DNA from: Massalongia carnosa
Lineage: Eukaryota
NCBI GenBank assembly: GCA_965645245.1
Contig: OZ287069.1
Coordinates: 3,038,001-3,102,000 of the forward strand
Direction: 5' to 3'
Length of the DNA: 64,000 nt
Part shown: one piece after another, positions 25,132 to 51,228 of the stretch
Layout of the letters: every line of letters begins with the position of its first letter
How positions within the stretch are numbered: position 1 is the stretch's first letter
Notes under the pieces: model-generated
The model's input: only the letters and a program-made list of their open reading frames with translations
Databases searched by the model: none
What the model was told of the DNA's origin: nothing
Position numbers and translations under genes: made by a program

Positions 25132-26031
25132 ATGATGTGGTTGTAGATAGGTCAGAGCGCTTTTCCAGGGGAGGTGGCCCTTTTTAGTTAGGTCTTGGCC
25201 CTTCTCGAAAAGCCTTTTACTTCATAAGCAGTAAGAAGAAACCCTAGTACTTAATCACAAAGGGTCTCCCCTTTCTCCAGTGTTGCATGACCTCTTTTGT
25301 AGGATCTACTTGCTCATGACCTCCGTATCCAGGTAGTCTCCTTCTATGTACATCCCTAGTTAATTTAGTGGGTTCTCAGGGCTCTCGTGATGTTATGTGA
25401 TGTGATGTGCTACTAAGGGGGGATTACAATGACGTAGTTTGGGGTTTTTAGTTCTCGGTACCAAACTTTTAATTATTTGTGTTGTTCCCCCGCCAGTGAA
25501 CCGAAATCCCGAATTCGAACACCCCGGAGCCTTTCTTTCGTGGGGCAGATGTGGGTTTTCCTTTAAGATAATTACTGAAGGTTAGGGTTAGGGCTGAGGG
25601 GGGGAAGGGGGCCATTTGTTTTGTCCCGGGAACGGTTCTTGAACGGTTTGGTAGTGGGTAGGGGGGGGCTGGGAACTAACCTACCCACCCATGTGTTTTT
25701 ACTATTAGGGATGGATGGATGGATGAATGGATTGATAGATTGACTGACAAATGGAGGAACGGATGGATGGGTGGATGGTCGAGGTGGATGAATAGATGAA
25801 AATCTGGAGGTTTCGGACTTTTTAACGAGAGGATGAACGGCAGGCAATATCTGTTTTTTCCCTTTTATTTTTTTTCTCCCATGACGGGATTCTAGCAAGT
25901 GTTCGCTCGTTCGAGCATGTATGGACGGAACTGGAAGGTGGGGCTGGTATGTGGGGTTCTCTCTCTTTCTATGTACATCATCCCATCCCGTTCCATCCCC
26001 GTTCCATTCAGTTTCTTCCCGCGCGCATCCC

Positions 26032-27337
26032 TTACCGGTACCGCTCTCCATCCTTCTTCTTGTACGGTAGTTTTTCGGGCTTTTTGCGCTGAAACTCGAT
26101 GTCTGCGCCCTCGACTCCGGCGCGTGTCATCACGCCCTTGGTGCCCTCGTCCCATTGGCTCCGGAACATGTTCACACCCACCGGGAGGAGCGAGTATCGA
26201 TCGTTGAAAGAGCGGAGATTGAACCTGTCCCTTTGGACTTTCGTCTTCACGGCTTCCAGATCCAGAGCCGCCCCGTCTGCCTGCTGCAGCACAAATACCG
26301 CGAGCCGGTGGTATGGCGCGCCTTTTTGAGCGAACGGAGGCAGCCATGGCAAGGCTGTTTGCGCACCTAATCGCGACAGCGGCACTGAGGTTGAGGTTGG
26401 CGAGACGGGAACGTTGACTGCCAGGAAATGGCAGCGGTATTCAAAGGCGTCGGTGGCCGCGTTTGGAACGTCCGGGTCCACGACAGCGATCGTGACGAGT
26501 CTTTCGCCCTTGTCGAAGACCTGAACGCGTAGTTTTGCGGGTATCTCGCTGATGCGCGAGTCGACGAATTCACCTGGTTGAACTGCGCGGGTGCCGAAGG
26601 CAAGGGTCACTTCGGTAATCGGATCGAGGTATGGGAGGATATCGGGTACAACGTGCATTTGTGTGATGCGTTGCATAATAAGGAGACGCCGGTATGCACG
26701 CCATTGACGGTCGGCAAGGTAGCGGTATATGGGGCGGTTCATGTCACCTGGCAACGCATTAGCAATGGATAATGGTGTCGGTAGGGGTAGTTGATAGCTT
26801 TAGACCTTCGCCATCCTCAAACCGTTTCTTAATGACCGGGTCGTTGATGTCGGCCAAGATTTTCAGATGCTCCAAATGTTTATGCATAGCTATTAGCCGG
26901 CCCTTCTTGCTCGCTTCTCCACTGCCGAGTCCAGCATCTTTAGCTTGCACTTTGGCGATTCTCTTACGCTCTTGCTCAATCTGCTTCAACTTCTCTTCCC
27001 GGTCGGCCTGGAGGATCTTACGGGCTTCTTGAAAGCATTGGTAAGGGAGCTGTTCAAAGGGGATCGAGGACTCTGCGCCTTGCAAAGCTGCTCGTCGTCG
27101 CCGCGAACCAATGGGATGTACGCCGGTTTTGAGAAGCTGCTCTTCTTCTTTACGTGTAGATACGAGCATCGGATCCAAGATGGTTAACGTGCTAGGCGTA
27201 TCTTGGAGAGATGTTTCATCGCCACTAGATGTGATGCTCGTAAGAGTTTGCCTCGAGTGTAAGATTCTTGGATTCCTTTGAATTGCGCATCGAAGACACC
27301 GAAAGGATGGGCGAATAAAGGATGCTGTAGCGGCCAT
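26032..27337 (-). CDS. MRPL35: Mitochondrial ribosomal protein mL38 (PEBP fold), 2 exons
   Basis: MAATASFIRP presequence; GSRRRRAA..PFEQLPYQCFQEAR..ADINDP; intron 26805-26748; GDMNRPIYRYL..VVDPDVP..PPFAQKGAPYHRL. Confidence 0.92.
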
Positions 27338-27814
27338 TGAAGGAGCGAATATATTTAGAAGTGGATGGAGGTGATGCACGAAATTGTGGGTTTGTATGTT
27401 GCCTTTTCCGGCCAGATGGAAGAAAGTGAAGAGTTTTCGGTGCTGTGATGGCGAGCTCCCAGTTCTGCTCCCAGTTCTGCTCTTGGAAGATATGTTCAAT
27501 ACGACGCAAATTCAATAGGTCTGTGTATGTAAATGTCATGTATCCAATACAGAATCTTCAGCGGAAGGCACTAAAAGATGTTCTCCATAGCAGTTGATTA
27601 GGGAATTTCGCGGACAACGGACATGCCCGAATGAAATGAATTTTGCTGGATATATTGTCGAGAGAGTGCAGCTTTTCCAAAGTTCTCATGCATTTGCAAA
27701 ATTTTATGCGTATGTTTGGAGCTTGAAGTTTAGGTCCGTGCTCAATTTAACATGCTGTACTCCGTAAGTAAAAATACAATTTTCTCTATCTCGGTACAAG
27801 CTCAAGAAATCCAA

Positions 27815-28746
27815 ATGACCTCCCACAGTCTTGGAAGCTCGGTTCAAAGCCTTAGGAAAATAAGTGCATTTGTTACTGTTTTCAAGGACCCGTTGATGGT
27901 GAATTATATCCATTTTGCTTATCATGGTCGCTAACCGTCAAACAGCGATGTCTTACGCCTCACCTTTCCCGCTCAATGGCTACGGAGACTCAACTGCCAC
28001 CAGCATCCAAAAATATGGCCCTTGACTTGCCGCCTCCCTTGTCACGTCGACCTGCTCCTGTAATTCCAGATGTGCTGGCGACTGTCTACCGCTTTCCTAC
28101 AATGGAACCAATGCGATTCACCTACTACCCAGCAAACCATCTGCATTTGCCTTTACGCCGCGATCTACTTCACCGAGCTGTCATCTTCGAAGGTGATGCA
28201 ACGCGACAGGGTACAGCTAGTACGAAATGGAGAGACGACGTTCGTGGCAGCGGGGCGAAGATACGGGCTCAAAAGGGTACTGGGCGTGCCCGTTTAGGTG
28301 ACAAGAAGAGTCCGATGCTCAAAGGTGGTGGTGTTGCCTTTGGGCCTCACCCTCGAGACTTTTCTACTAGGCTTCCGCGGAAAATATACGATCTGGCATG
28401 GCGAACTGCTTTGAGTTATCGATATCGGAGAGGTGAATTGATAATTGTGGAAAATGGAATTGACGTTGAATCGGATGAGCCAGATTGGATTACGAAGATT
28501 ATGCAACGGAACCATTGGGGCAACGCAGATGGCAGATCTATGATTGTCACAAGGGGGAGAAGACATAACCTGTTCGAGGCTTTGGACGGTGCTGGAAGGG
28601 AAGGGAGGGCAAAAACGGCGGAAGATGTTGACGTGAAGGATATATTGGAGCTTGGAAGGATTGTCATTGAGAAGAGAGCGTTAGACTCGATTTTGAGGAG
28701 TCATTCAAGCGATTTGAACAGAACCGTTCCTTCTGCTGTATACTAG
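27815..28746 (+). CDS. YML6: Mitochondrial ribosomal protein uL4m, 2 exons
   Basis: Probable exon 1 (27815-27898) and intron 27899-27945 are in frame with ORF 27976-28746. L4 motifs RQGTASTKWR..QKGTGRARLG..GGGVAFGPHPRDF. Confidence 0.9.
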
Positions 28747-28991
28747 ACTTTGCACTTTTTGACGGAGCGGGTATTTCAGCTTTCAATTTCGAGCACTCAA
28801 ATCACAGCACTTGATGTATTTAGCCAATTAATCAACGTGATATGCGAGCATGGCAATACTATGTTTCTAATAACCCTGACAATGATGCATTCTGGCTGTG
28901 TCCTGCCCAAAAGAAACGCCGAGGTTCGTCACTCGAAGAAAGTTTCTGGTTTCTTGCATTTACCCAATTTTCGAACACATCGTTGCCATTG

Positions 28992-30634
28992 ATGTTTCTA
29001 CGGCATCGATGCGCAACAGCATTTACGCCGCTGAGCCGGCTCTCGCGGCGATACCGATCGATCATGCCGCTCAAAGCAAAGATCCTTGAAAATGCATTCT
29101 CAACCCATGGAGAAGAGGTGCTGATTCTTATGTCCTTGAACACGTTGTAATATCGCTGACTATAACACAGATGTCAGCCCCGCCGTCTCACGAAGCACCT
29201 GGCGACGATCCGGATGATGTTTTATTCGGTTCGCATTATGGCGTTCGTACAATTGAGCTGAATCGTCCCCGCAAATTGAATTCCCTCAACAGTTCAATGG
29301 CACGTAAGATTATTTCAAGACTGAAGGTAAAGCTAGAAAAGTCGACTCCCAAAAAGTGAAACGCAGATGCTCATCGTCGGATGTCATAGGAGTGGGAAAA
29401 ATCGGAATTGGCCAATGTTATAATCATTGGCGGCGCCGGTCCTAAAGCTTTCTGCGCTGGCGGCGATGTCGCTGCTCTAGCTCTACAAAATGCCTCTGGA
29501 TCTGAAGGTCAAGAGCACTCGAAAGCTTACTTTGGTTTAGAGTATCAGCTCGATCATCTTATCGCCACGTACCCCAAACCCTACGTCGCATATATGAATG
29601 GCATTACCATGGGTGGGGGCGTTGGGCTCAGCGTTCACGCCCCATTCCGCATCGCTACCGAAAATACCATATTTTCTATGCCTGAAACATCGATTGGGTT
29701 CTTCCCAGACGTAGGGGGCTCTTTTTTTCTACCGCGGTTGGAAGGCTACATAGGGACTTATCTGGGGTTGACGTCGGAGCGCTTAAATGGGGTGAATGCA
29801 TTCTACACAGGAATTGCGACACACTATATTGATTCAAGCAGTCTGCCAAATCTAACGGCAAGGCTCAGCGAGTTGGAATTCAAAGACTACACTTCACTCA
29901 ATAGTAGACTGTCGATCATTGATGCGACAATTGAGGAATTTGTTACCGGTATCCCGCACAATGAGCCTATGATAATATCAGGGGATATGCGTAAGGCTAT
30001 TGATCGTTGTTTCAGACACAACCGGATGGAGAACATCCTGCAGGCGCTTGAGGAAGAGAAGTCGGGAAAATTAGCTGATTGGGCAACCCGGACACATAAC
30101 ACCCTTTTGGAACGCAGTCCCACAAGCTTAAAGGTTACTTTGAAGCAAATGCGTGTTGGTAGAATATGGGACATCAGCGAAGCCTTCCAGAGAGAGTTCC
30201 ATATTGCGAGTCACTTTATGACACATCCCGATTTTAATGCGGGCGTCTCAGCGCGACTAATTGATAAACCACCCTCGACACCAAAATGGAATCCTTCAAC
30301 GTTAGACGAGGTCAAGGACGGAGACGTAAATGAATTCTTTACGGTGCCAAAGGATGGAAGACGGTTAAACTTAATGGCGTACAGCACGTGGAAGGAATAT
30401 CCGGCCCAGATGGGTTTGCCCCGAGAGGTTGAGGTGGAAGAAGCTGTGCGAATAGCAGTTGGGAGCGGTGAGAAGGCTCGAAATGTGAGGCGGAGGATTG
30501 TGGATAACATGGCAAAGCAAAAAGGGGGAAAATTAGGAGTGAAGGAAAAGGTGGAGGAGGTACTTCAGCGAAATTGCGGCGTCAGTGATCATGGAGGATT
30601 AAGATGGATTCAAGAAGAATTATCGGAACTCTGA
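28992..30634 (+). CDS. EHD3: 3-hydroxyisobutyryl-CoA hydrolase (Ehd3; mS47 in the yeast mitoribosome), 3 exons
   Basis: Arg-rich presequence MFLRHRCATAFTPLSRLSRRYRS; ELNRPRKLNSL; KAFCAGGDV; GITMGGGVG; MPETSIGFFPDVG. Confidence 0.92.
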
Positions 30635-30913
30635 ATTGCAGATCCCCAATGTACCAAAGATTGTAATAAAATGTCAACTCCTAGAATGTATTGGCTTGAT
30701 ACTAGTGTTTTGCTCGAAGGATACGGTGCTGAATGCCATCTTACGAAGATCAAGCAAACTCGTCGCATACATCCCCGGGGTACAAGATATTTTGTTTTAT
30801 ATTCTCCCGCAGCATATGATATTGCCCCGGGCCAGTTCTCCATAGTTACTCCCCTACCGTCGACTCTAGCCTTTCCTTATTTGGTCCTCCAACTATTCAC
30901 TCTCAACTTGCCC

Positions 30914-31391
30914 CTAAAACCCCCCAAACGCCTTCTTCCACACCACCTTCCCCGGTATATTCATAATCTCCTCCAAAGTACTGCCTAACTTCACCACCCC
31001 ACATCTTAGCATTCTAGCATCTATCGCCACGGTCTTATGTACAAGCTCGTGCGTCTTTGGCGAGCAGTCGTATCGCATGATGAAATGGTGTCCGCTGTCA
31101 TGGAGCACTTGCGAGCGCACCTTTGGTTTCGTCAGGAGGGAGGGGCCCCAGTTGGTAAAGCCACGGACCACACCGCCCGAGGCTAGAACCAGACTGCCAG
31201 CTGTTCGGGCGATCCTGGGTAAATATTAAGCTTTAGATGAAGGCGAATCATGATAGAAGAAGGAATGAGGTGAAGGGGGAGTACTCTTTAACTTCATTAA
31301 CGTTCCCTACTCGAGCCTAGACTTCTGTTAGACTGGAATACAACTGGGGCGAAAGGTAGATACATACTACTGCTATCATCTCGTACAACAT
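30914..31391 (-). CDS. MRP17: Mitochondrial ribosomal protein bS6m, 3 exons
   Basis: MLYEMIAV|ARVGNVNEVKE|IARTAG..GGVVRGFTNWG..GHHFIMRYD..DARMLR. Confidence 0.88.
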
Positions 31392-31566
31392 CTTGCGAGC
31401 CCCAAAGATTCACCACTACGAGATCACGATTATGAAGTTGCGATGCTCTAAGACGTTAAACCGAATAGGAGATGAATCCTTGTAAGGCCGCTAGCGGGGT
31501 TTCACTATCTCACTGATACGTCAATGGCTCCTCAAATTTATTTGCTGGCGCACCATCCTCTTCATC

Positions 31567-32247
31567 ATGGCGACAATTGTAAGAACCATTCTACCAATAA
31601 CGAGACCGGTCGACTCGCTGTTTTCTCAATCCTGTCTCTATCGAAGAATATCACCCAAACAAGGCATCTGCAAAACCAGACTACTCTATCCAAGATGGAG
31701 TGCAAAGGCGTTCACAAACTCAACAGCCCGTAAATAATATTGGCAGAAACGAGCAACAAGTTCATATAGCTGACATGTTCAATTATCTAGTCTATGAGAA
31801 GAAATATACCAAAGACCATGAATGGATCGAGCTCTCGGACGACGGCAAAATTGGTCTGTCTCCCTTTTCATCCCTCAACTCAACTCACTTTAAACCACCC
31901 AAATCGCTTAAAATTCCATACTATGTATACCAGGCACAATTGGCATATCAGAATTTGCAGCAAATGCCCTAGGCGACGTTGTCTACATCGAACTCCCAGC
32001 CCTCGACACCGAGATCCACGCCGGCGACACCATTGGTGCAGTCGAATCTGTTAAATCCGCCTCAGATATCCTAACGCCGCTTTCCGGGAAGGTCGTCGCG
32101 AAAAATGATTTCCTGGAGGAGAAGCCCGGGTTCATAAATAAGGAACCGGAGGGCAAGGGGTGGATTGCTCGGATCGAAGTTGTGCCGGGGGAAGAGGTGG
32201 AAGGGTTGATGGGAAGGGAGGAGTATAGGAAGTTTACGGAAGAGTAG
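31567..32247 (+). CDS. GCV3: Glycine cleavage system H protein, 3 exons
   Basis: Presequence exon; KYTKDHEWI; GTIGISEFAANALGDVVYIELP; lipoyl-lysine motif AVESVKSASDI; TAG 32245-32247. Confidence 0.93.
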
Positions 32248-33455
32248 GGGAGTGGGTTTAGCTCTGGAATGCATGGGTTAAAGAGTCTGTGGGGTTTTTC
32301 TTGGGTTTCACGGTATGGAAGGTGAAAATGGTTGCTTCAACGCACTACTTCGCTGGGTTGGGTACATAGATTTGTGAATTCCGTCCGGAGTATTATCTTG
32401 AGGGCATTCAAAAGTTGAGATATACTATCTGTGATTGGGGTGGATATCCGCAGCTCCGTTTGAGTTTTGGTCTTTGTGTGGCTGCAGCTACGGTTGCTTC
32501 GGAGAGAACGATATCGCGAAGCCTGGCTTCTCCAGTCTACTTTTAAATAAGAGCGTCCAACCTAGCAGGCAAGGGAGAGATCTTTCACAGGTATTTCCTC
32601 CCACCAAAATTTTACCTGGATTGGCTAACAATACTGCATTGGACACATCTCCTGGGAGTCTGCGGACGGTCAACAGCGGTAGATATATGTTACTGTTCAG
32701 AAGATTACAGTTTCCTCAGTATCGAATGTCTTTATCTTACTTTGAAAAGTCCTGTTCATAGCCACTCACCTGCCTTTCTCTGACTTACTTTCATTCCAAC
32801 CCTTTACTACTGTTCTTCTCCACTTCTCCTTATTCCTATTTATCAATTATTACCTCCTTGAAGCACCCAGCAATTTCTTTTGCCTAATTTTTCCTCCGTC
32901 CACGCAATTCAAACTTAAAACCACCTCCTCAATATACAAAGTCTGTCGACCTCTTCCATGTCCGACTCTGTTTGTCACAGGAAGGAAGATAGATTTTCTC
33001 CTAAGAAGCCCATCGCTGACGATAACTGAATACATAATGCAAACGGTGCTCCTGACCTCGATCAGGAGCGTCGGCCATGGTAATGGGATATTTGCCATTT
33101 TGCCTTTCTCGTTCCCTTTCGTTTTAGTTACTCTTGTTATTCTTGTCCTTGTTTTCTTTTTTCGGCTGAAATAAAATAAAGCATGGAAATTCCGGGACCG
33201 CTAGAGGTTAGTGGTAAAGAAAGAACGAATAAAGTGAAATTACACAATGGGTCTGTCTGGAAGAAGGGAAAGTGGGAGGGCAAAATTAATCTTTTCATCC
33301 TATCTCAATCAGCCAATCCCCCTTTCATGCCTAACTTACCTCTTTCTGTCTCTTTCGACTGCCTCGCCTCCCCTCCTCCTAGCAGTTCCTTTCCCTTTCA
33401 CTTCTTATATCCCTTATCCCTCTCCCCAAACTCCCGAAACCTCCCCACTATCTGA

Positions 33456-33456
<1 letters not shown>

Positions 33457-33534
<78 letters not shown>
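33457..33534. repeat. Perfect (AGT)26 microsatellite
   Basis: 78 uninterrupted nt between the GCV3 and MGM1 3' ends. Confidence 0.95.
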
Positions 33535-34009
33535 TAAATAAGTACCCTAGTTTAGCCCCCTTACCTCACCCTACCTGCTGTATTCATCTACCTATATACC
33601 CATGTACCTGCCTAATCCACCTACTCGCTGTAACTTGTACCTACAACACACCTATCTAGCCAGTCACCCAGATCCCTACATACAACAATGTATATATACA
33701 CGTTCAAACGTCCGGCCAAGAAGGGCAACCCCTCCCCACTAAAAAACAAAAGGAAGCGGGAGTTTGGAGATTTGGGGATCGGTTCGGTGCTCTTTGTAGC
33801 CTTTTTCTTGTAACAGGCACGCTTGGGGGGGTCATGAGAGATATATAGGAGGAGTGAGGTAGGATTGGGGGAAATCGTATGTATGATGGATAGATGGATG
33901 GAGATGGTATGAATAAGCCGCCTGCTAAAATTGAAAATGAAAATGCCCGTTTCTGAAGGGAGATGAAAGAGCGCCATACCCAGACAAGACCCCATATTTC
34001 CCTAACCCT

Positions 34010-36961
34010 TCAGAACAAGCGCCACCCTTTCCCCCCTCCCCTTTCCTGGCCCCCGCCTCCTCCACCCCCTATCTTCCCCCCTCCTCCCACCCCTCCGGCC
34101 AACTTCCCACCTAACCCCTCCCTCCTCCGTTCCCTCCCTTCTAACAAGCGCAACCCCTCCATCTTCGCCAGCACCAGTTCCAGCATTTCCTTCCGGCGAA
34201 TGACATCCAGATGCCTCCGCACCTTAGGATCCTCCCGTGCGAAGCGCTCGACCTCGGCGTCGGCGAGATGACGGCCTAGGCGCGCGTCCAGCTCGCGCGG
34301 GAAATCGTGGTAGAAAGCGGCGAGCAGCTCGACGTTGAGGAAGAGCACTGCCGTCGACACGAGCTGCTCGGCCACGACGTCGAGGAAGATCTCGGGACAT
34401 TGGTATTTGGCCTTTTTGCTGGCGCATTGCGAGGATTTTAGCGCCTGCAGGCGCATTTGGAGGATGGAGGCGCGTGTACGGAGGAAAACGGCGTCTCGAC
34501 CTAAAAAGGGAGAGGTTATGAGGTCGTTTAATGATATGCTAGCTGCGCTGAAGGGCCTTACATACCTTTTGCAAGTAAAGCGGCGCTGAAGCCGCCGGCG
34601 CCGCCGACGCCGTCACCCTCGAGCACAACATCGCCCTTCAGGACACGATCGATGAAGCTCATGACATCGTTCAGCTTCCGTTTGCCGCCTACGTCGTTTT
34701 CCACGCGCTTGACGGCCGCTTCGCACGACTTGAGCTCGTTTTTCAACACGCTAGCGATCCGCTGGCGTCCCTTCGCCCATTCTGCGTCTTCAACTTCGAT
34801 TTCGTATTTGTATGGCTTGATACAATTCTCCACCTGATCGCTGGTGCTGTAGAAGCGCTCGTTCAGAATGCCTGACGCGGCGCTCGTGATAGCTTGACGC
34901 GCGAACGGATGTGCAGCGAAAGTGGACGAAGAGATTAGTCGATCAACCTCTGACTGAAGGGCTTCTGCAACCTTTGTGGTGGCTAATCTTCCTATTCCAA
35001 GTTTCGTGAGTGATGATGTTGAAGCATCGAGTTTCCGATGCCAATACAAGGACTCGGGGTCAGCCCTTGGAAGACTGATGAGTGGGTCTGGTTCAAAGGG
35101 GGGGGGAGTAAGGTCGTTGATTCTCTTGTTCCAGTAGCGTTGCGCAAGCAAATCCAAGACCTGTTGATCGAGCTCTGATTTGAGTAGTTCCTTGACCTGC
35201 GGACGCCCGAAGGCCTCTGCAAATTCCTTGAAGGAATGCTTGAAAGCATCCAGGCTCTCGGCGAGATACGATTCAGCGCTGAGGGGTCGGTCGTTGTATT
35301 GGACCTTGAATTCGTAGGTAGCTTCTTCGAGCTCTTGATGAATTGCCTCGCTGGTGCTCTGTAGACTTGCCGCCATAGTCTGCTCCAGCACATGCATCAA
35401 TTTCTTTCGTAATGTCATCGTTCCCACGGCAATTTCGGATTTATCTCCAAATTCCAGCGGATGTGCTGAGAAGTAAGCACTTTCGTTCCTCGTAATCGCC
35501 CTCGTGATATTGCCATTTCCTCTCGAGAAAAGCCCCGAAGCGTGCGGTGCACGGCTGACCACGCCAACGTACCCAAGACGTAGCGGGTATTTTTTGTCGG
35601 TGAGTATGCTCACTCCTCTGGCAGGGTCCACCAGGTCCATTTTTGTTACCACTCCTATTGTTCTCTCTCCTCTTGGGTCCACGCGTCTGCTTGCACGAAG
35701 TGCTGTGGAGTTCGCTAAATCAACATCTGCAGCTGATATGGCGAGAATAACATTTGGGGGCTGAATGTATCTGTCGCAAAGATCTGCGATCTTTTGCTTC
35801 AGCTCAGGGGGTTGATCGAGCCCGGAAACTTGTATGTATCCGGGCAAGTCAATAAGAGAAAGATCGGGAACGTTGGGCGAATATATGGACAATCGGATTG
35901 GGTCGTCTGAAACACAATCCGCGGCTGGCACTGCAAGGTTGAGATCTGTCAAAGTGTTTTGGATATGGGAGAAATCTGTTATTTTCCCTAGACCTAAAGC
36001 TGGAAACTCGCCGTATTCCGTCTGTGCATCAGGGGTATTGACTAGAGTGAGCTCGATTGGCCGTCGAGTAATCATATTCGTACCCTTTGGCAAAAATTCA
36101 TGGCCTACAATTGATTCCAAGACCGAGCTCTTTCCTGACGACTGAGATCCAATGACGACGATTGAAGGTAGCGTTAAAGCGTTCGATTGACCGACGGACT
36201 GTAGCAGGCTCCTTATTTCAATCATTTTTTTCGTCAACACCATCATTTGATCATCTCGTGCAGCCTCTTCGCCTGAGCGTTCGTCATCCTCCAGTGACTG
36301 CGAATATCCGAAGGCTGCGGCAGTACCGGCAACTGCCGCCGTGCGGGCTTTGCTTTGCTGAGGTTCACCCCCTTCATGAGATGGGCCGTCATTGTTTGGC
36401 GCCCGTGCTGCCTTTGCCTTGGTTGTCAAACTCTGAAGCCATTCTGGTACTACTATCTCCTCCTTTTTTCTATCCCAACCATTCTTTGTTTGCTCTGCAA
36501 TGTCCATGAACCCTGCCAACATGCTTCCCGCTGCTCCACTAGCTAATTCACCGGTTCTCCGGACCGTATCTATCGCATAGTTGCCCGCCTCTGCCAAAGC
36601 ACCCCATCAGCTCCCTAGGACTGTTTAACCTACCAAGAGACTCACGCGTAGCCTGATACTGCAAATATGCTAATCCAGCAATCATTGCGCCCCCGAACAT
36701 GGCAGGTATCCGTACCAGCTTTAGGGCCAAGTTTGGCAAGACTCTTGCAAACGATATGGCACGCACGGCGGGAACATTATGTAAATAATTGGCTCCAAAT
36801 GGCCAAGATCGCTTTATGTTTCGCCTCAAGCCCCTTGAGAGTTGGCTGTGGAGTAACACTCCTGCAGAAGACGCAACAGGTTCATGAAGCTCCCGGCGCA
36901 AGGAGAGCAATCGGTATGGTGTTCGGCGGACAAGGCGCGCAGCCTGCATTAATCTACTCAT
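34010..36961 (-). CDS. MGM1: Mitochondrial fusion dynamin-like GTPase Mgm1, 3 exons
   Basis: Introns 36645-36591 and 34565-34501. P-loop GSQSSGKS, TRRP, DLPG, TKMD; CPEIFLDVVAEQLVSTAVLFLNVELL; RFAREDPKVRRHLD. Confidence 0.95.
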
Positions 36962-38050
36962 CCTAGGCGAACTTCAAGGGACAGCGTGAGTCCTCTGATG
37001 GATGCGAACCCCGATCATGGTATATGTGCATATATGTGCAGAGTAAGTTTCTAGTTGTTTCTTTGGAAAGCCAACATAATACTTCAAGCTTTTACAGAGA
37101 CGGAGAGGAATAACGGAGCTTCGGCGAACACTGCCAAGCCGCTAAATAGGCGAAGGTGATTGTTTGGGGTCCTTTGTCGTTTATGGAGATTCTACGTTGT
37201 ACATATGTGCGTTATCAATCAAACACTATGCGAGTTGAACGACAGCTACCGCATCGGAATATCATCGTGTATAATTGTACATGATGGTGCTCTCACCGGT
37301 TTGGGAATGCTGCCCTTCTCAGAGGATGTTTGAACAGGTAAGGTTGAAATGGCTTTGCATGGAAATATGTAAAGGTGATCTTCATTCACTCGCAGATCAA
37401 CAAACAGTAGGTAGAGGGCGCCGGAAAACGATTCCATCATATTGTGCCAGACCTATGCCGGCGGTCTGTTCAATGGCTCGTTGCATGATATTCTCTCATG
37501 TCATGTTCATCTGGGTGCATTGTGTTAACTGACAGGAGATTAATTGATCTTGGAAAGGCAACATAATGTATGCCCCGCTGACCAACCCCTCGCACTATAC
37601 CTAGGAGATGATCGAAATCCAAGGGAAGTACATGTGGGTATTGGAACACCATGCCGCAAAAGGAATTCGTCGCTCGTGAGGATACACGACACCACCAAAG
37701 TGCGGTGGAGATGTCCGCGTGGTGAAAACGATTATGCTTTTGTACCAGAAGATGGGCGGGGACCCGTCAATAACGACCTCCGAAACCGTCCACAAGTACG
37801 AGAACTGAGGTACTCTGAATGAAAAACACCTTGGAAAGTACACAGAAGAAAACTTGAATTAGAACTGACGTGTTTTATTCAAGACGAAACACTGAGACCA
37901 TGCGATGCCCCATCGCAGCAGATCTTGACTAGCTGCACAGAAGGAAAGGCGCAACTTAAAGGCCAGTGCGATAAAAAACATGAAAGGGATACCCTGGGTA
38001 CGCAGGCGATGCTTGTCTCAAAATACTGCCATGGAAAGAAGTATGCCGAG

Positions 38051-39959
38051 TTACGCTTGGTAGCCTCCTCCAAAGTTGTTGCTAGGCGCGTTTGAGGGAA
38101 AACCGCCAGCGCTCTGAGGGCCCCATCCGCCAGAAGGGTTTTGGTCACCACGGCCGTAACCGCCAGCGCTCGCCGGCATCTGAACATTGCCATAGCCTTG
38201 AGGCGTCATCCCTGGTCCTCCAAACCCACCCTGAGGTTGATTCCAGCTACGACCACCAGGGTTCGGTCCTCCCATGGGAGATTGATGGTTCGGCGGATAT
38301 GCTGACATTGAGTTCCCCGAGTTAGACGAATGAGGGGCACCTTGTGGGTTCATGGCTCCAGGCCCGCCGCCGTACTGAGGAAATCCATATCCTGGCGAAG
38401 CTTGAGGGAAGCTCGGAGTCTGGGGCTGTTGAGGGGAATAGCCCTCAAATTGACCGGTTGGAGGACGATCTTTACCCCACTGCGAAACGTTACGTCAGTA
38501 AATGGACCTGTTGATTTCCTGCGCTACTTACGCTGCATTTCAGAGGACGGCCATTAACGTTATAGCCACTTAGTTGGCAGATCGCCATAGCCGCATTTTC
38601 ATGGGTGTCCATCTTAACAAAAGCAAAGCCACGATCGGACTGAAATCTAGTCTCGACAACATAACCAAAATTCTGGAAAAGAGGAACGAGGTCATTTTGA
38701 GTTGTATATGGGGTGAGATTTCCGACATAGCAGGTGGTTTGCCATTGAGGAGTTTGTTGAACCACCATGTCATAGCTTTGCACACCATGGGTGGGAAAGT
38801 GATGGTGACCGAATGGCGTAGTAGGGGTCATTCCCATCGCCGACATGGCTTGCTGTTGAGAAATAGATGGTTGCCCTTTCTGGTTGGCCCAATTGCAGCG
38901 AATGGCACGAGATCCAAGCCACTCTCCATCCATAGAACTAAGCGCTTTCTCCGCGTCACCACGATCACGGAATGCGACGAACCCATAACCACGAGAGCGG
39001 CCGGTCTTCATATCCCACATGACACGAGCTTCGGAAACTGAGCCGAAGGCGGAAAATGCTTGAAGGAGTACCTCGTCATTGACTTCATTGCTAAGATCAC
39101 CAACAAAAATATGAAAGTGGTTGGAGGTATCTTCTTTGCTAGAATTGTTCGACTGGTAAGCCCAGTTAACGCGAATTTCCTGCCGACCGAATCAGCGATC
39201 ACTAATCTGTATGATATTTACTTGCGGGGGCCTACAGCTTGGTGGACTCGTCGACCATTGAGAGTTGCCATAGCGCGCTCGGCGGCTCCTGGATCGTCGT
39301 ATTCAATGAAGCCGTAATTGAAACCCTTGCTCTTGACACGGATCAGCGTGTGTAGAATTCAGTGGGGAAACATACATAAGAGCGTGTGTTGACGTGTGGA
39401 TAAAAAATTTCAAAATCAACAAAACTTGGGAGGGCTCGCTATCTGAAGCTAGTGCGGTATCGAGTCTTCATACCGCCATTTTATCATCGATAACGCGCTG
39501 AACAGCATAATTGAAATGGTTCAAAGGAGAATAATGGATTTTACTTACAGCACCCACATTCTTATCAGGAATGATTTTCACATTTTGTACATGCCCAGTA
39601 GTCTCGAAAATTTGGCGGAGTATGTCCTCCGTAACTCTTGGATCTAACCCCCCCACATATAATGCACGCTTGTTTGGCTCCGGAGCAGCGCGACGAATGA
39701 AACTGCTCGTGGCAGATGACGGCGACATCATTCCGCTCTGGTCGCCTGTGATCGGCGATGTCATCGCGGTTGGTATAGGATTGGTGTTCTGGGGAATCAC
39801 CACCGGTGGCAATGGAGGGGGTGGCATATGTGCCGGGTTTCCCTGACCATTGCTCGTGCCGTTATCGTATACCTCTCTGCCGGGGGCTCCTACGAAGGTT
39901 TGGGGTGGGGGCGGAAGGGGTATGGAGGACGAGGAGGAAAGGGCTTCGGTGTCGGCCAT
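38051..39959 (-). CDS. PUB1: Pub1/TIA-1-like three-RRM RNA-binding protein with Q/G/P-rich tail
   Basis: RALYVGGLDPRVTED; SKGFNYGFIEY; EIRVNWAYQ; HIFVGDLSNEVNDE; RSRGYGFVAF; TCYVGNL; LKCS|WGKDR. Confidence 0.92.
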
Positions 39960-40981
39960 CGCGAAAAGCTGGCTGATCGTTGCAAAAACTTAAGAGAGAA
40001 TTGGAACAGAATGAGAATTTCGAAAGATTCGGCAGCAGCTTGAGCGCCTGGTGAAAGGATGCGAGTAATACGAGTAGCAGGCGACCTCTAGAGAGCAATA
40101 ACGTGAGTGGAGGCCGCATTGCAACAAGAATATTACTTCACATACGATTGGTCAAACTTGAATTGTTGTGGGTGAACAAGCTAATGCTACCGCTATCACG
40201 AGCTTTTGCGAATGATATGGCTGCAGCTACTTTGCAAATAAAAAAGCTAACAGAGCGGGTAGTGAGCAGTAGTAGATTTCGCCGAGCGCCTGGTGTAGGA
40301 GTACGTTTATCGACTGGAGGAGAGAATATGAGAAGAGATAAAATGTGAAAAGGAAAGGGAAATGACGAAAGGAAAGAGAGGAGAGCCACTCGAGATTTCC
40401 CTGACGCTGATACTGGTCCACGAATTATGTGGAAGAAAAGATGCGAGAAGTTGGGGGAGTTTGTCGAGGAAAGCTCTCAATCTTTCGACTAAATAACGAA
40501 ACACGAAGCGCTAGTCGCGAGTGGGTGCGTGGGTTCAAAGGAACGTAAGGTACCCCATCTTTCCTACCTTGACGTGGGAGAAGGGCGGACAGGGCGAGAA
40601 TGTGTGTCTATTCGCCATTTTTCGATGTCATTTGGCATGGTTCGTTTAAGCATTGTTCTCGTCAACACTTTGCACGGGGAACTCGGCATTTTCACGGTGA
40701 TGTGAATTACTTTCTACACATTCCATCGCCTCGCAACAGATGAATGAGAACAAAAGGGTACCGCCTAGCGTGGCTCATCAGTGTATTTTATCGACAAAGC
40801 GAGATGCCGCTAGTAAGTTTACCTGTACATGCATGGCCCGTGCGCACTGAGCAAAGAGCCTCTTCTATTGTCTCTATTCTCCATCCTTCATTCTTTATTC
40901 TTGCGACAACCATCCCCAATTGAGGTGGCATATGATTAGCCTTCGACGTCGTATTTCGACGGAAAACGATGCTCTGCAGCC

Positions 40982-43749: not shown

Positions 43750-45500
43750 CAGCTGGCTTGACGAACAGAGAATTCCAGAACCTAAAAGGGATGATGTCAA
43801 GGCGCTACGAAATCCAAAGATTTGTCCGAGTACCCCAAGCTTGAACTTGTCCCAAAGAAGCGTTCGGGCTTCCGCATCAAGCTCTTGCAAACTATAGACG
43901 AAGAGATGTGGCCTGTTTGAACCCGCTCAGGAGTACTCTCTATCGAAAGAAGCATTTACCTTTCATGATCTTTGACCAACTGGACAAGGAACTTCTCCGC
44001 TCGGTCTTAAAGGAAACGTCTTCCTAACATGGGCATCTTGGCAGATGCCGCCTGGCATTTACTCCACGACAACTCGGGCTAGCTTAGGAACGACGTCACG
44101 TATTACCCTCTCGCTCTTTAAAGGACTCCTTGGCGCAACTAAACTGGATGTTCTCGCCACGCTTGTACATCAAGTGATCCACGCCTACTATTTTTAGTGC
44201 TGTGGCTTTCGCCAAAACGCCGACGACGGCTCGGGCCACAATCTCCGGCATAGACACCAGTTCCGAGCGCCTCTCCTTCCAATCAGCGAGCGGTGCTCCC
44301 TCAACGGCCAGGAAATCCCAACCTCCGAGCCTGCGTCCATTCGACGCCAAGGTCTATCGCTCGCTTCATCCAACAGCAATTGTTGCCGCCATGCCTTTAC
44401 CATTAAAAATATTGATCGCGAGAATTTGGCGACGGATGGCCATTGGCGAAACCCTTTCGCTAGAACAGAGACGGAAGAAAAAATCCGTGCAAAATGCTAA
44501 TCAAATTGCAAATATCCAACTTCCCAGATACGGCATTTTCTTTTATCCTTGAGTGAAGGATCGGAAACTCACCTATGACGGCCACCGAGTTCTCTCTGCT
44601 GAATTCCGGTTTTTATGGCCGAACACCATTTACAACAACGTAACTCTGTAGCGGAAGCATGTCATGGAGCTGTACTTCCAATCTCACGCCTACACTGTTC
44701 ACAACCCTTACTTCTCCTATCTCCTCGCGCTCGCTACCTTATCCCATTTCACCCGGAATGGTATCATTACCCTTCCCTCATAAGCTAGCCTCACCGATTT
44801 AGGAATCCTTTACTCCTTTTTCCAGCACCCTTCGACCCCAAGCCTCTCCCCTCATCAGCAACCAAATTCCCCCCTCATCTTTCCCCAGTAACCTTCCATC
44901 CCACCTATCTTGGAACCCTACATCTCGGTTTACACCCTCTCCCGTCTCCTCGCCTTCCCACCCCTCGCAATCCATGCCCTCGCCATCCTCTACTCCTACC
45001 CATATATGCGCGAAACCCCCCTTACTATCCTCAAAGCCATCTACCACCCCCCTCACCGGGCCGCCTCTTCATTTCCACCCGACAGTATCCTCCGCGAGCG
45101 GACTAGATCTTGGCTGGCGTGCCCCTTTTCCGGGGAGCTGGACCGCTACGCTAGCAAGTTCCCGACCAACTTGGCCGTCATGCAGCGGTATCGAGACTAG
45201 GAGCAATACATACGCCTACGCGAACGCGGCGCCGTGCTCGTAACGGATCTGGATGATGTGAAGCGCAGCCTCGCGCAAGCGCAGAAAGCGAAGGAGCAGC
45301 TAAAGGCGGAGTCTAAGCCCGACGCTGCACGGCCGCCATTTAGGCCGTTATATGCAACGGATCATAATTGTTGGCTACCGGATCTTCGCACCTAACCCTT
45401 TCTTGGCCCCGATATACCGCCTAGTAGTTTAATTCCTTCGTCAAGCCTGACGCCAGTATCTTCGGGGCAGGCGGATGGTAGGTATCTCGAGCGGGTAGTG
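43750..45500 (+). pseudogene. Pseudogene: SprT-like (HQxxH) region plus BTB-like region
   Basis: FMIFDQLDKELL..NVFLTW..LATLVHQVIHAYYF*CCGF (TAG 44195-44197, frameshifts), then YISVYTLSRLLAFPPLAIHAL..PLTILKAIY. Boundaries approximate. Confidence 0.55.
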
Positions 45501-46844
45501 CAGGGGCAACGCGAGAGGGGCAAAAGAAGAGACGAGGCGGGCCGTGGATAGTGAGAGGGAGATGGAGGATAAAGAGCAGGAGGAAGAACAGAAGCTGGAG
45601 GAGAAAGAGTGAGAGCGTGAGCATGAGCGCGAAATATAGAGAGCTTCGGGAATGGGTACTATTTAGATATTCCTCCCCCCGGGGGTTCGAGGGGGAGATC
45701 ACGTCGATCGCTCTGGGTGATAGGGATAGGAAGACGGGGAATGGAAGGATCAGGCCAAACCCTTGCGTTGGACAGCTAAGCAGGTACCCCATGTTTTGGG
45801 ATTTGGTTAGGTAGTTTAGTTAGATGTCCGGTTTCTCTTTTCCTTTCATTTCCTTTCCTTTTCTGTTTTTTTAGGAGCACAGAGGGAGGGAGGTAGAGGA
45901 GGCTGTCTTTACCTCTCGACATTTTCTCGATGGAGTTGGGGGTTTTCTTTGCGCCTTGTCTTGCCTTTTCTCGCCTTTCTTTCTAGCCTTTTCGCGCATC
46001 TATTCGTGTTCGGCTATTCCATCCTTCCTTCCTTTATCCTTACTCCTCCTCCTTTTCTCTTTCGGGTCGGGGAGGATGGTTGGTTGATACGCGTTTTCTT
46101 TCTTTCTTACTTATGACTCATCCCTCCCTACTTCCCCCCCTCATCATATTCCATCTCAACTTAATTCAACTCAACCCAATCCAACCCTTGCTTTCCCCCC
46201 CTCCCTTTCGCAATACCTATTGCAATCCCCCCTCCCCCTTCACTTTTTCTTCTCTTTCTCACTTCCCGAGCAGGTATTTAACTTTGACATTTCTATCTAC
46301 CTATCTATCTATCTATATATGTATATATAGATAGAATAAAACCACTTGATTATCCCAAATCCCCTCCTGTCCGTATTGTGTTGTGATATGATACAGTCGA
46401 GATCGGGGGAGATCGGGGGAAAACGGGAGGTAAACCCCTGAAATGTTACTTCTTATTGTTGTCGCTGTTGTTGTTGTTGGTGGTGGTGGTGGTGATGGTA
46501 GTGGTGTGGATATATTTCGAATGAAATGGAATCGAAATCAACAATTGTTCTTTCATTCATTCGTTCATTTCCTTCTATTTTCCTTTTCTTTTCCTCTTCT
46601 TCTTCTTCAATTATAAAAGGAGGGGGAGTTAAATGTCCCTCTGTATCAAATTCCTCTTCTCTATCTCTTACCCCCTACCTCTACTTCTCAACCCCTCAAC
46701 CCCTCAATCCCAACCCCAACAAACAAAACAGCTAGAAGAGAACTCCCAGATCCTAGGCATCAGCTCAACGAACAACCCCCCCCCCACAAAAATCATCGCT
46801 AACTTGGAGCGGTTGCTGATTAAGTTAGGTGGTGGTTGGGGACG

Positions 46845-47361
46845 TTTCGGTGGGGGGGATTGGGAGCAACACCAGTAGGAACGGCTTCTCAGGTCGCCGA
46901 TGAGTTGGAACGCTGGGTTGAGGAGGCAGACGTTGACGGATTTAATTTTGTAAGCACCATTCTTTTTACAACCCGATCATCGTGTACCCCATCCCAACCC
47001 TTCTAGACCACCAGTCCATGCAATTTTCTCAAATTTCATTCGGCAAGCCAATTTACCAACCACATTATACTCTCGATTTCGCATCTTGTGTGATCTTTCC
47101 TGTTTTAACTTGTACTTCCAGGCCTATGCCATCTTCCCCTCCTCTTTCCAAGACATAGCCGATCTGCTTATTCCTGAGCTCCGAAAACGAAGCCTATTTT
47201 GGTCCGACTACGCGGTACCGGGTGGCACATACCGCGAGAACGTGTACGCGCAAAAAGGACAGACACGACCGCTTGATGAACATGTGGCGGCTAGATACCG
47301 TTGGAAGGCGGGTGTAGCGAAAGAAGAGCATGTCATACCTAGCCAAGTATCTGCGACCTAA
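46845..47361 (+). pseudogene. 3' fragment of an NtaA/DszA-type luciferase-like flavin monooxygenase
   Basis: GGLGATPVGTASQVADELERWVEEADVDGFNF | intron | AYAIFPSSFQDIADLLIPELRKR..YAVPGGTYREN. No N-terminal coding sequence upstream, only low-complexity DNA. Confidence 0.75.
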
Positions 47362-47799
47362 AGGGGCAGTCTTGCAATTGAACATATGACATTGAGAAGG
47401 GTTGGGAAAGGATCAGTACACGAGAGGAACTGGCGCGTAGGCAAGGTATTTTAACTTGTAGAATAGGTAAAATTACAGTAGATGTCATAGTTTATATTAG
47501 TAGATAGCTCCAGATACCTAACACCTATCTCTTCCCCGGGTTGCGTGTTATTTAACAAAGGGGTTGGGATTGCTATGGAGAGCGGCGACAGGTATGTACG
47601 GAATAACTACGGAGTAACTACATGTCAGATACCATATTAGTTTCACCTAGGTCACATAACATGATTACAGAAAGCATCAGAAATTATCAAAGCTAATGCT
47701 TAGCCTTAAATACCCTATCTGAGGAAGCACTGCGGGCATTTGGTGGGGTTGTTCTTCTGTGCTTTTAGGTTGCTCCTACAAATGCTTTCATCTGAACAT

Positions 47800-48750
47800 A
47801 CTCAGCCTTGAGGAGGTATGTAAATGCAGGATGGCATAAGTCGGGTCATATACCATACTGGGGGCGCAGGTGTTTTCGCGTGCCTTACTGGCCAGAGAGA
47901 CCATTGCTGCGGAAGTGGCTGCGAAAGCCTATGTACATGGGAATTATAATCCTTGCGCCAGAGTTTGGTGCTAGCGTGGCCATGGAAGACTATCAAACGT
48001 GCGTTCTCTGCTCATTCTGATGCTCGGAGCAGGAACAGTGTTAGAAAGAAACTGACCGTAACCCACGCTTTCTATGCAAATATGGGTGGGTTCGCTCTTC
48101 GATCTCGTTATCAGAAACACCTACACAGAAACAGGAATCAACGGTAGGAAAAGCCAAGCCAATAAGGGGATCTCTGTTTGCCGTTACAGCCCTCCGAGTT
48201 TATACTGTTGCAATTTAAGTGTTTATAGTCAGGCTAAGGAATCCAATCATGTCAATATAAGCTTGACAAGATCTTGTTTAGTGCTTTACGCTGAGAACAT
48301 TCAAGTCATAATAGCGACGATCATTCACGATCATGATAAGTTCCACGATTTTACAAAAGTCTTTGTTCTTGTTTAGTCAAGTTGACTGTTGATACAAAGT
48401 ATTGCACGAATATCGGTTGTGTTACTCTATCGTTAACAGAACTAGAGCTAGTGATCATGGTATACATTGTTTGCGTTATTTTATCTCGTACATAAGAAAC
48501 CCCCCAACCTTTTGAAATCGTTTTCACAACACAGAACGTCGAAATATACTTTCGCAAATCAATAATACTCGTGTTTACCCCCTTTTGCACCAGCGCTAAA
48601 AGTAAAAAGATCAGAACAAACCTAAATCTTTATGTAATTTTCTGAAACCTTCAGTATCATTAGTTCACATAGTCATAAACTCAATCACATCACTCTGTGA
48701 GAATGGAAAACTTTTTCGTTGTCATAATCACTATGGTAGTTGATTTTGAT
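47800..48750 (+). pseudogene. Pseudogene of an uncharacterised fungal multipass membrane protein family
   Basis: Family motifs ILAPEF, THAFYANMGGF and DK.HDFTKVFVLV*SS*LLIQSIAR..LTELEL, with stops where Q and W are expected, plus frameshifts. Confidence 0.6.
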
Positions 48751-49434
48751 TTTGTGATTAGTAATCAGGAAGTCTAACATAGTGGCCGCGCTTAGCGCTA
48801 GTGCAAAAGTGGTTTAGCACGATTATGGACCGTGAGAAGGTTCAGGAAGTTTTGCTTTCTCTATTTATTTATTTTTCTTTTCTTCTATCCTCAATTTTTT
48901 TTTAAAAAAATATGGGTGCACTGCCTCACAACTAAACTCCCGTTTTGTCGCGATTCTTCGAAGATTCTGGTTAGCCACAATGAACAGGGCGAAAAAAAAA
49001 GAAAATGGCTACTCAGAGTAGGATGGTAGCTGGCTAAAAACTCACGATCTAGACTGAGAGTTTTCCCTTTTTCTGCCTGCTGCTTACGCAAGACCACCTC
49101 ACAGTTACAGGCTGTTGGTTCGGTTGGACCAAACGAGTATTTTCTGGCATGCAATACGGATTTCTTAACAGGTGTAGGCAGTCCTCTGAACATTATGTCC
49201 CCCGCTTCACGGGGTGGTTGGTATTACATGACGTATCTGCACTTTAGGTTCCTGCAATGACAAGTCGTTGTAGTAAACTAATATCTTCAATTTCTCCGTT
49301 GCTTACCTCTATCTGTTTAAGCTCCTGGTAGCCTAGTTTATCTACTCTCTGTTTCATTCCTATTTACAAAGTGGGCCTCCTTGCTTTTGACGCTTCCACC
49401 GCCTGTACGGACTTCACTAGCAGATTCTCCGGTC

Positions 49435-51228
49435 ATGGCAGATGTATTCCGTGTGAGCTTGAATCAGCGGTTCGTCGTTTTCGTTGGTGCTTTCATTCTT
49501 CTCTAACTGATCGGCCTGGGTATCTACCACCTTTTCTTTCATCCCCTTGCCAAATTTCCAGGTCCGAGGTTGGCGGCTGTTACACGATGGTATGAAGCCT
49601 ACTATGATTTTATTAAGGGAGGAGTTTTTGTCTTTAAGATTGGAGAACTACAGCGGAAATACGGTAGGAACAACTTCCCTTCGCCATGTTATACCTAATG
49701 AAGTCGAGCCTTTTGAATGAAACACTAATATTGCTCACACCCTCCTACTCAAAGGCCCATTGTGCGGATTAGCCCCTTACGAACTTCACATCAGTGATTC
49801 AGACTTTCACGAAAAGTTATACAGGTAGGATAGAAAGTGGGAGAAATATGCATTTGCATATCATCCAATGGGCAATCCAAATTCCGGCCATGGAACGTTG
49901 GATCACGAGTTGCATAGAATACGCTGGGCGGCCATGAACCCTTTCCTCTCCAAATAAAAAATTCTCCTTCTACAGCCGGTCATTCAAGATCAGATTGAGA
50001 AGCTATCGCAACGTATCGAAGCGTTTGCCGCATCATGCAAAGTACTGCTGATTGGAATCGCGTATGAAGCTTTTACCATGGATGTCATCACAGAATACGC
50101 TATGGAGAAAATTTACGGGAATCTAGATTTTGAGGATTTCAATAAAGATATGGCTAATTATGTACAAAGTCTTGGGTTGGTTTGGCGGCTGGGAAAGCAT
50201 GTCAAGGGGTTTTCCTTGTCATTTGCTTAGGCTCCAGCTTGGATCATTGTTCGTCTATTACCTGCATCTAGTCAAGTAGGGTAAAAGTTTCGTTCTTCAT
50301 CCTTTGACCACGAAAGTTTCTGTTTCAGCTAATCATGCTAGATACACAGTCTTGCCTTGGTCAAGTCCAAAACGTCTTCTCCGCCGCTAAACTCAGCTCA
50401 ATCCAGCAAAGATCCCACGAAACCACGTTCCACGCACTTTTAAACTCCGAAGTTCTTTCGGACTTAGACAAGACTGCCGAGCGCTTCAGCGAACAAGTAC
50501 AAACTATCGTTAGCGCTGTCTCGAGTATGGCAGCGGCAACACTCCGTCTCATTACCTTCTACCTTTGCGAGAACCCTCCGGTGCTTCAAAGACTCCGTGC
50601 GGAGCTCGAAACGGTTCCATCCCTCTCGCACAGTCCTCGAAAGCTGCAGCAGCTTGAAAAGCTCCCGTACATCACCGCAGTCATCCCGAGAAGGTCTCCG
50701 TCTTTCAATCGGACTTTTCCCGCGGCTAGCCAGAATAGCGCCCGATCGAGTAATTGAGTTTGGGGAGTGGAAGATACCACGTGGGACTCCTGTGGGCATG
50801 ACAGCTGCTTTAATGTTTCGCGATGAGAGTATTTATCCCGAATCTTGGAAATTTGACCCCAAGAGATGGATGGAACCTCTGAAACGGAGGCGGCTTGAGA
50901 AATATTTCGTGCCGTTTTCAAAAGGTTCCAGGAACTGTCTTGATATCAAGTGAGTCGAAACGTCCTTTTGAGTTAGTCAATATGAGAAAGTCTTCGTTTA
51001 GTATGCAAGAATGGATATGAATATCGGATGAATAACTGACACGCTTCCCGCCAGCCTTGCATGGGCAGAACTCTACCTGACGCTCGCAAAATTCTATTAC
51101 GATACGACTTTCGCTTTACAAAACCACCGTTGACGAGGTTACTTTTTGCAAGCGATCAGTTCGTGCCGGGGGTAAAAGGCAAAAATGGCATCCACGTAAC
51201 GGTGGCAAGAAGAAAAGCTCCGAACTAG
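49435..51228 (+). pseudogene. Cytochrome P450 pseudogene (CYP58/trichodiene-oxygenase-like clan)
   Basis: [23 protein letters not shown]; heme motif FSKGSRNCL at 50915-50941. In-frame stops at 49504, 49826 and 49955, a frameshift near 49775, and an apparent internal deletion near 50260-50350. Confidence 0.88.

Follow-up and report, generated by a model that had tools for sequence, protein, structure and literature searches.

The window analysed here, a stretch of 64,000 nucleotides from the lichen fungus Massalongia carnosa (GenBank assembly GCA_965645245.1, contig OZ287069.1, positions 3,038,001 to 3,102,000; the genome comprises 52 Mb in 25 contigs), contains six consecutive genes for mitochondrial proteins in the order mL38, uL4m, EHD3/mS47, bS6m, GCV3 and MGM1 (26,032-36,961). 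In this lineage, two microsyntenic modules of greater age probably came to lie side by side, and so formed the run, within an ancient chromosomal neighbourhood whose gene order has been shuffled by intrachromosomal inversions, a pattern known as mesosynteny. The two modules, designated A (mL38-uL4m-EHD3) and B (bS6m-GCV3, with MGM1 more loosely attached), are conserved separately, distant fungi lack the junction between them, and both are accompanied by non-mitochondrial genes. The features of the run are given below, with lengths in amino acids (aa), nucleotides (nt) or base pairs (bp) and positions of the window.

26,032-27,337 (-): mL38 (MRPL35), mitoribosomal large subunit protein with PEBP fold, 415 aa, intron 26,748-26,805; module A
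27,338-27,814: mL38/uL4m gap, 477 bp, head-to-head; putative shared promoter, presumably with bidirectional activity
27,815-28,746 (+): uL4m (YML6), 294 aa, with predicted start codon and predicted 47-nt first intron; module A
28,992-30,634 (+): EHD3/mS47, 3-hydroxyisobutyryl-CoA hydrolase family, 508 aa, two introns; module A
30,635-30,913: EHD3/bS6m gap, 279 bp, tail-to-tail; junction of modules A and B, seen in none of the distant fungi examined
30,914-31,391 (-): bS6m (MRP17), 118 aa, two introns; core of module B
31,392-31,566: bS6m/GCV3 gap, 175 bp, head-to-head
31,567-32,247 (+): GCV3, glycine cleavage H protein, 179 aa, two introns; core of module B
33,457-33,534: (AGT)26 microsatellite in the GCV3-MGM1 gap, where breaks in public contigs fall
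34,010-36,961 (-): MGM1, a dynamin-like GTPase of 943 aa with two introns; linkage to module B is loose

Composition and integrity of the run

All six genes have open spliced models, which are separated, from mL38 to MGM1, by gaps of 477, 245, 279, 175 and 1,762 bp, and the run has a bZIP gene on one side and, on the other, an RRM gene resembling PUB1. The best PDB matches of mL38, uL4m, EHD3/mS47 and bS6m are chains of 6ywe/6yw5 (E-values of 3e-76, 4e-74, 6e-132 and 6e-21, respectively) and the next are chains of the yeast mitoribosome or, for EHD3, a hydrolase followed by yeast mS47, while GCV3 was identified by Pfam GCV_H and MGM1 by Dynamin_N together with LIS_MGM1. Counterparts of mL38, uL4m, mS47 and bS6m are all included in the Neurospora mitoribosome, according to its description (PMC7560712). 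By a crude count, the N-termini of five of the six products are basic and poor in acidic residues, the exception being bS6m. The best named protein relatives of the window genes belong to lichen-forming Lecanoromycetes.

In EHD3, the MPETSIGFFPDVG motif, which we take to bear the catalytic acids, is intact. This gene also has a second in-frame ATG at 29,064 (+) besides the one at 28,992, where the first adds 24 arginine-rich, presequence-like residues and the named orthologues align only from residue 25 onward; dual starts are possible, as are truncated orthologue annotations.

None of the three tested open reading frames (ORFs) of more than 100 aa in the 1.76 kb GCV3-MGM1 gap has a Pfam match, none of 152 ORFs of at least 25 aa from the gaps of the run matches any related locus, and an Atlas search of the GCV3-MGM1 gap, which is a single-copy stretch, gave only leads below 0.9. 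A hidden gene in this gap was rejected on these grounds, and a very small or non-coding gene in the gaps of the run is possible. With open models, Pfam and PDB identities and empty ORF scans of the gaps, the preliminary description of six intact, consecutive mitochondrial genes, four of them mitoribosomal, with no intervening gene found, is borne out, as are its divergent spacings of about 480 and 175 bp.

Conservation of module B

To place module B in other fungi, metagenome contigs were searched with an alignment of 37 bS6m sequences, which matched 179 stretches. Eighty loci were taken, 79 of which hold bS6m and fall into 35 clusters at 90% DNA identity, a set that leans to lichens (31 loci are under one accession series). 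GCV3 stands head-to-head with bS6m in 28 of the 35 clusters, and in a 29th (L034) at a relaxed cut-off, while the remaining six have at most 516 bp of sequence upstream of bS6m. Among the clusters with at least 1 kb upstream, which include lichen-like, Eurotiomycete-like and other loci, the arrangement is found in all (25/25). The pair is consistently divergent with less than 1 kb between the genes, the start codons being 138-315 bp apart in 23 clusters (this leaves out two spurious calls, two clusters without a call and one in which no start was found), compared with the 175 bp of the window. The Yarrowia identifiers (YALI0E00220g and YALI0E00242g) are 22 apart, a numbering step that we take to denote adjacent genes, so the two are apparently adjacent in that yeast as well; gene numbers in Neurospora and gene names in S. 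cerevisiae place the two apart.

MGM1 is attached less firmly. It lies near bS6m-GCV3 in four clusters, or in three of the ten that extend 9 kb to either side. Its placement varies, for example GCV3-bS6m-MGM1 in the lichen cluster L004 and bS6m-MGM1 in the Eurotiomycete-like L036, and in Uncinocarpus reesii it is three tags from GCV3. A search of representatives yielded no MGM1 tag to pair with those of the other genes. The bS6m-GCV3 pair of the window is inverted relative to that of L004 and is adjoined by the (AGT)26 microsatellite, a possible breakpoint mark.

Conservation of module A

For module A, gene order was read from the order of locus tags or accessions, on the assumption that these follow the chromosome, and Trichoderma, whose identifiers are unordered, was excluded. 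mL38, uL4m and EHD3 lie within three genes of each other in seven of nine Pezizomycotina genomes with ordered identifiers. Five named genomes are common to the lists of the best 120 relatives of mL38 and of EHD3, and in four of these the two genes are two tags apart:

Alectoria: mL38 007491, EHD3 007493
Malbranchea: mL38 7845, EHD3 7847
Pyrenodesmia: mL38 000545, EHD3 000547
cf. Caloplaca: mL38 005277, EHD3 005279

In Lecanora helva, mL38 and EHD3 are separated by 19 accessions. Further genomes are covered by the orthologue tables of PMC4654594 (Hogan et al., 2015), in a comparison of six species whose orthologue counts could grow or shift in a larger set. These tables place the module at URET_05014/05015/05017 in U. 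reesii, and in two Verticillium species EHD3 is followed, after one intervening gene, by mL38 and then uL4m (VDBG_07520/07522/07523 and VDAG_09241/09243/09244). In Neurospora, mL38 and uL4m are neighbours (NCU01473/01474) with EHD3 at another locus. Adjacency of mL38 and uL4m thus extends to distant taxa, namely Neurospora and both Verticillium species, with a distance of two tags in Uncinocarpus, as far as tags tell, since orientation is not visible from them. The same tables show the genes of module A scattered in Yarrowia and Ustilago, with mL38 and uL4m far apart in Yarrowia. In several lichen gene models (P0016, P0056, P0069 and P0072) mL38 is fused to an FAD-binding domain; these are probably merged neighbours in the annotations.

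The junction between the modules

The junction that makes the six genes a single run was found in none of the distant fungi examined. mL38, uL4m and EHD3 match none of the 79 bS6m loci, even at an E-value of 1e-2, in a set that includes 25 clusters reaching at least 1 kb beyond bS6m on its downstream side and ten reaching at least 9 kb in both directions. Nor are mL38 and bS6m adjacent in any of eight genomes with tags or accessions for both (Alectoria, Psora, Malbranchea, Ikaeria, Usnochroma, Rusavskia, L. helva and Xylona), where some bS6m contigs are short, so that a break could hide a case. The modules lie apart on one contig in L. helva (122 accessions) and Xylona (98 accessions). Going by the tags, they are about 1,650 tags apart in U. 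reesii and 210-360 tags apart, probably on one chromosome, in Verticillium, and the six genes occupy five separate loci by number in N. crassa. The two closest relatives of bS6m (78%) are on Logan contigs of 23,732 and 15,877 bases, and two relatives of EHD3 (65%) are on contigs of identical sizes, which hints that two relatives share the junction, within one clade.

Adjacency of all six genes across independent lineages is therefore not seen (0/79 loci, 0/8 genomes, and a split arrangement in N. crassa and U. reesii), and the idea of a conserved six-gene cluster is not supported. The preliminary description had also suggested ancestral Pezizomycotina synteny, which is upheld for the modules and for both divergent pairs (bS6m-GCV3 in the 23 clusters with measured spacing, mL38-uL4m in Neurospora and Verticillium) and is not supported for the six-gene run.

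The surrounding neighbourhood

The neighbours of bS6m-GCV3 elsewhere, surveyed in 116 of the 358 ORFs of the bS6m loci, are mostly non-mitochondrial and include Nup192, a TEL1-like gene, TUL1, Shg1, CHS7, EBP2, TRAPP and PEX11, several of these names being our own assignments from Pfam families. Many such genes recur around the run in Massalongia. PUB1, the 41 kb gene, SprT, Mpv17/PMP22, Sm D2 and dihydroxyacetone kinase are inside the window, TUL1, CHS7 and TRAPP are in its left 50 kb flank, and PQ-loop, PEX11 and EDC3 are in the right 50 kb flank; seven of the companions of the modules (PUB1, SprT, Sm D2, dihydroxyacetone kinase, TUL1, CHS7 and PEX11) thus lie within about 80 kb here. Those with positions in the window are as follows.

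8,431-10,956: dihydroxyacetone kinase (+) and Sm D2 (-, 10,366-10,956), convergent, 15 kb left of mL38
38,051-39,989 (-): RRM gene, non-mitochondrial, presumably PUB1-like
43,757-52,778: SprT-like gene, conserved ORF near 44,660-45,300 and Mpv17/PMP22-family gene, which neighbour bS6m-GCV3-MGM1 in other lichen loci and stand in a reshuffled order here

The PUB1-like gene follows MGM1 in two of the three full-length locus clusters with MGM1. The neighbours of EHD3 in Neurospora (NCU03777-03779) are Sm D2 and dihydroxyacetone kinase (NCU03778 and NCU03779), and EHD3 is listed as a divergent partner of Sm D2/LSm in seven Sordariomycetes and Leotiomycetes and in Monosiga in PMC2871058 (Davila Lopez et al., 2010). 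Counterparts of neighbours from lichen loci, Eurotiomycete-like loci, other loci and N. crassa are present in the window and its 50 kb flanks, but their order is scrambled. Such reordering of non-mitochondrial genes near the modules suggests an old neighbourhood whose genes have been rearranged by inversions.

These companions also bear on the proposal that the mitochondrial genes are linked beyond what ordinary neighbours would show. MGM1 is present in three of ten full-length clusters, and PUB1, SprT, Sm D2, dihydroxyacetone kinase, Nup192 and TUL1 accompany the modules too, in a comparison made at the level of single loci. Non-mitochondrial genes hitchhike with MGM1 and EHD3, an outcome of the kind that, by the preliminary description's own standard, would speak against its proposal. 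The Mpv17-family neighbour was at first read as mitochondrial SYM1, a reading that was dropped, and it is not counted as mitochondrial; an AAA gene in locus L025 was rejected as ClpX on its sequence.

Origin of the run

Each module is probably anchored by its head-to-head pair, with start codons 140-480 bp apart and both genes using common promoter DNA. Such a pair would leave an inversion little room to break, and a break there would harm both housekeeping genes, so that the pair probably moves as a unit. Co-expression of the pair would then probably be a side effect, EHD3 and MGM1 would be looser passengers, and an inversion in this lineage would have brought the two modules together tail to tail. 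The six mRNAs are probably coordinated mostly in trans, by Puf4 acting on their 3' untranslated regions as for scattered mitochondrial genes, rather than by position.

How surprising such a meeting is depends on the model used. With independent gene order and an assumed mitochondrial share of 7-13% of genes, 0.001-0.05 runs of at least six mitochondrial genes are expected per genome, and four mitoribosomal genes within five positions are expected at about 2e-4 per genome. The run exceeds this naive chance, though gene order in these genomes is not independent. In a rough model, two modules of one region or chromosome become adjacent in 0.2-2% of lineages, which would be unlikely for one given lineage and unsurprising across a scan of very many windows. 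The run is not visibly part of a wider mitochondria-rich domain, a candidate that was rejected: no mitoribosomal family was found among 102 of the 105 ORFs of at least 95 aa in the 50 kb flanks and five ORFs of the window, a scan that small multi-exon genes could escape, and the sole flank candidates for a mitochondrial role are an NAD kinase and PIF1-like genes.

Several observations weigh against a chance meeting of the modules. It requires the rare event just estimated, and the junction, perhaps shared by two relatives, may have lasted for some time. MGM1 adjoins bS6m-GCV3 in more than one arrangement (L004 and L036 as against L022 and the window), and EHD3 lies within two to three genes of mL38-uL4m in two orders (the window and Verticillium); that both stayed near their modules through reorderings is what selection for proximity would also yield. 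Finally, N. crassa has a slight excess of very close mitoribosomal pairs (gap of at most 3, four observed versus 1.3 expected, P 0.04, one of five thresholds).

Regulation of the six genes

PMC4654594 attributes mitochondrial co-regulation to Puf4 on scattered genes. There, all four ribosomal genes have orthologues among the conserved Puf4 targets of Pezizomycotina, with a false discovery rate (FDR) of 0.0005-0.0044, and 68 scattered mitoribosomal rows also have an FDR of <0.01, in a table whose rows were apparently preselected as targets; the FDR is 0.02 for GCV3 and 0.34 for MGM1, which is no conserved target. Strict Puf4 sites in Massalongia occur in one of six 3' regions of the run versus one of ten controls, the carrier being MGM1 (within 500 bases past the stop), and Puf3 sites in two of six versus one of ten. 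Among the bS6m orthologues, 15 of 29 clusters have a Puf4 site (antisense 4, shuffled mean 2.7), compared with four of 25 for GCV3.

Evidence for a cis-element common to the six genes was not obtained, with none of four tested motifs, a small set, present in both divergent promoters of the window and strict Puf4 sites in one of its six 3' regions. Of 28 bS6m-GCV3 gaps (L033-L078), 16 contain GCCAAG, presumably a PacC/Rim101 site, and 16 contain GGAGCT (shuffle maximum 12, with relatedness uncontrolled); both motifs are absent from the window's own bS6m-GCV3 gap. In the lichen loci and the window, CGCTAG tends to stand in this gap instead.

By NCU number, in the 67 mitoribosomal rows of N. crassa available, the observed and expected numbers of neighbours are 2 and 0.44 at a gap of 1 (P 0.07), 4 and 1.3 at a gap of 3 (P 0.04), 4 and 2.2 at a gap of 5, 4 and 4.3 at a gap of 10, and 12 and 8.2 at a gap of 20, which amounts at most to a few tight pairs. 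Other close pairs by number in these rows are NCU06450/06451, NCU05714/05717 (uL15m near bS6m) and NCU08296/08299.

Alternative explanations

An unlikely alternative, and the one that survives best, is a selected mitochondrial-biogenesis cluster, in which proximity is favoured through shared chromatin or promoters that would co-regulate mitoribosome, one-carbon and fusion genes, and the lineage gathered the modules by selection. The density of mitoribosomal genes (four in five positions), the passengers kept through rearrangements, the slight close-pair excess in N. crassa and a junction possibly common to two relatives are what it would lead one to expect. It is at odds with the absence of the junction from all loci and tagged genomes, the dispersal of the six genes in N. 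crassa, the non-mitochondrial neighbours that accompany the modules, the lack of a tested motif common to the two promoters and the status of MGM1 as no conserved Puf4 target. A broader form of the idea is likewise doubtful: small mitochondrial-translation modules would be under selection in ascomycetes, a bidirectional bS6m-GCV3 promoter predating the Saccharomycotina-Pezizomycotina split would couple mitoribosome supply to glycine cleavage and lipoylation, and the lichen lineage would have built a six-gene co-regulated domain. Glycine cleavage provides one-carbon units for the formylation of mitochondrial initiator tRNA.

It is less probable still that the run is the ancestral Leotiomyceta order, retained here and broken in most other lineages. 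The location of both modules on one chromosome in L. helva, Xylona and probably Verticillium fits this, as does the position of TUL1 and CHS7, Eurotiomycete-like neighbours of module B, beyond module A in Massalongia. However, many independent losses would be required, and the L004 and L036 orders suggest that MGM1, not EHD3, was the 3' neighbour of bS6m. An assembly artefact at the EHD3-bS6m junction is very improbable, for although the junction is in no distant fungus seen, contigs of runs X2 and X3 (from one study, possibly the source data, hence not independent) span 25,148-33,448 with no difference and Logan contigs of equal size appear to carry both genes in two relatives. Run X4 contributed only short contigs of low depth, which do not bear on the junction.

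Relation to known systems

The lineage-restricted meeting of two modules combines two phenomena that are already known, conserved divergent pairs and mesosynteny. Like the conserved fungal divergent pairs of PMC2871058, some of which are functionally related (HSP60/HSP10 and ribosomal S16/L13), the two pairs of the window are head-to-head with short spacing and are kept across Pezizomycotina and beyond; neither bS6m-GCV3 nor mL38-uL4m was found in its pair table (supplement file 4) with the terms searched. Mesosynteny, as described for Dothideomycetes in PMC3516569 (Ohm et al., 2012), retains the gene content of a region while inversions shuffle order and orientation, with simple repeats near breakpoints. 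The neighbourhood of the run resembles this, with (AGT)26 beside an inverted-looking pair as a possible counterpart of such repeats, but in this lichen fungus the pattern is deduced from locus tags and loci of 20 kb rather than from whole-chromosome comparisons. The Puf3/Puf4 regulon of Hogan et al. (PMC4654594) shares with the run its four ribosomal targets and, unlike the run, concerns dispersed genes, on which it acts in trans.

Fungal metabolic gene clusters (GAL, DAL and biosynthetic clusters) consist of adjacent, functionally related genes with divergent promoters. The run resembles these in having several functionally related neighbours and divergent promoters, but it has no single pathway and no demonstrated local regulator and is not inherited as one block. 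No prior report of the bS6m-GCV3 pair, the mL38-uL4m pair or the six-gene run was found in the literature searched, where subscription papers and cluster databases were outside reach.

On the favoured explanation, the run is a clear example of a conspicuous functional cluster produced by local inversions acting on conserved head-to-head pairs, and it is a caution for run-length tests that presume independent gene order. The bS6m-GCV3 pair, near-universal and with some 180 bp separating the start codons, offers a short candidate bidirectional promoter on which to test whether such pairs are retained for their function or are merely unbreakable. Should co-regulation of all six genes be true, they would form a rare housekeeping cluster recently built from old parts.

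Other features of the region

A 22-base exact match at 37,660-37,680, between MGM1 and the PUB1-like gene, is conserved with L004 (L004-L012 near 14,226-14,247) and is possibly a 3' untranslated region element of PUB1. A C-terminal fragment of a cytochrome P450 is spread over two frames at 50,308-50,953 (+), either as a pseudogene or with an intron. Two PIF1-like helicase genes lie within 50 kb right of the window (L090:1,045-3,966 and L094:1,767-4,300), one of which could be the nuclear/mitochondrial Pif1. In the left flank there is a Ras-family gene (L086:78-989, -), and the GCV3 neighbour in Neurospora is TEM1, so the left-flank gene possibly belongs to the old neighbourhood as well.

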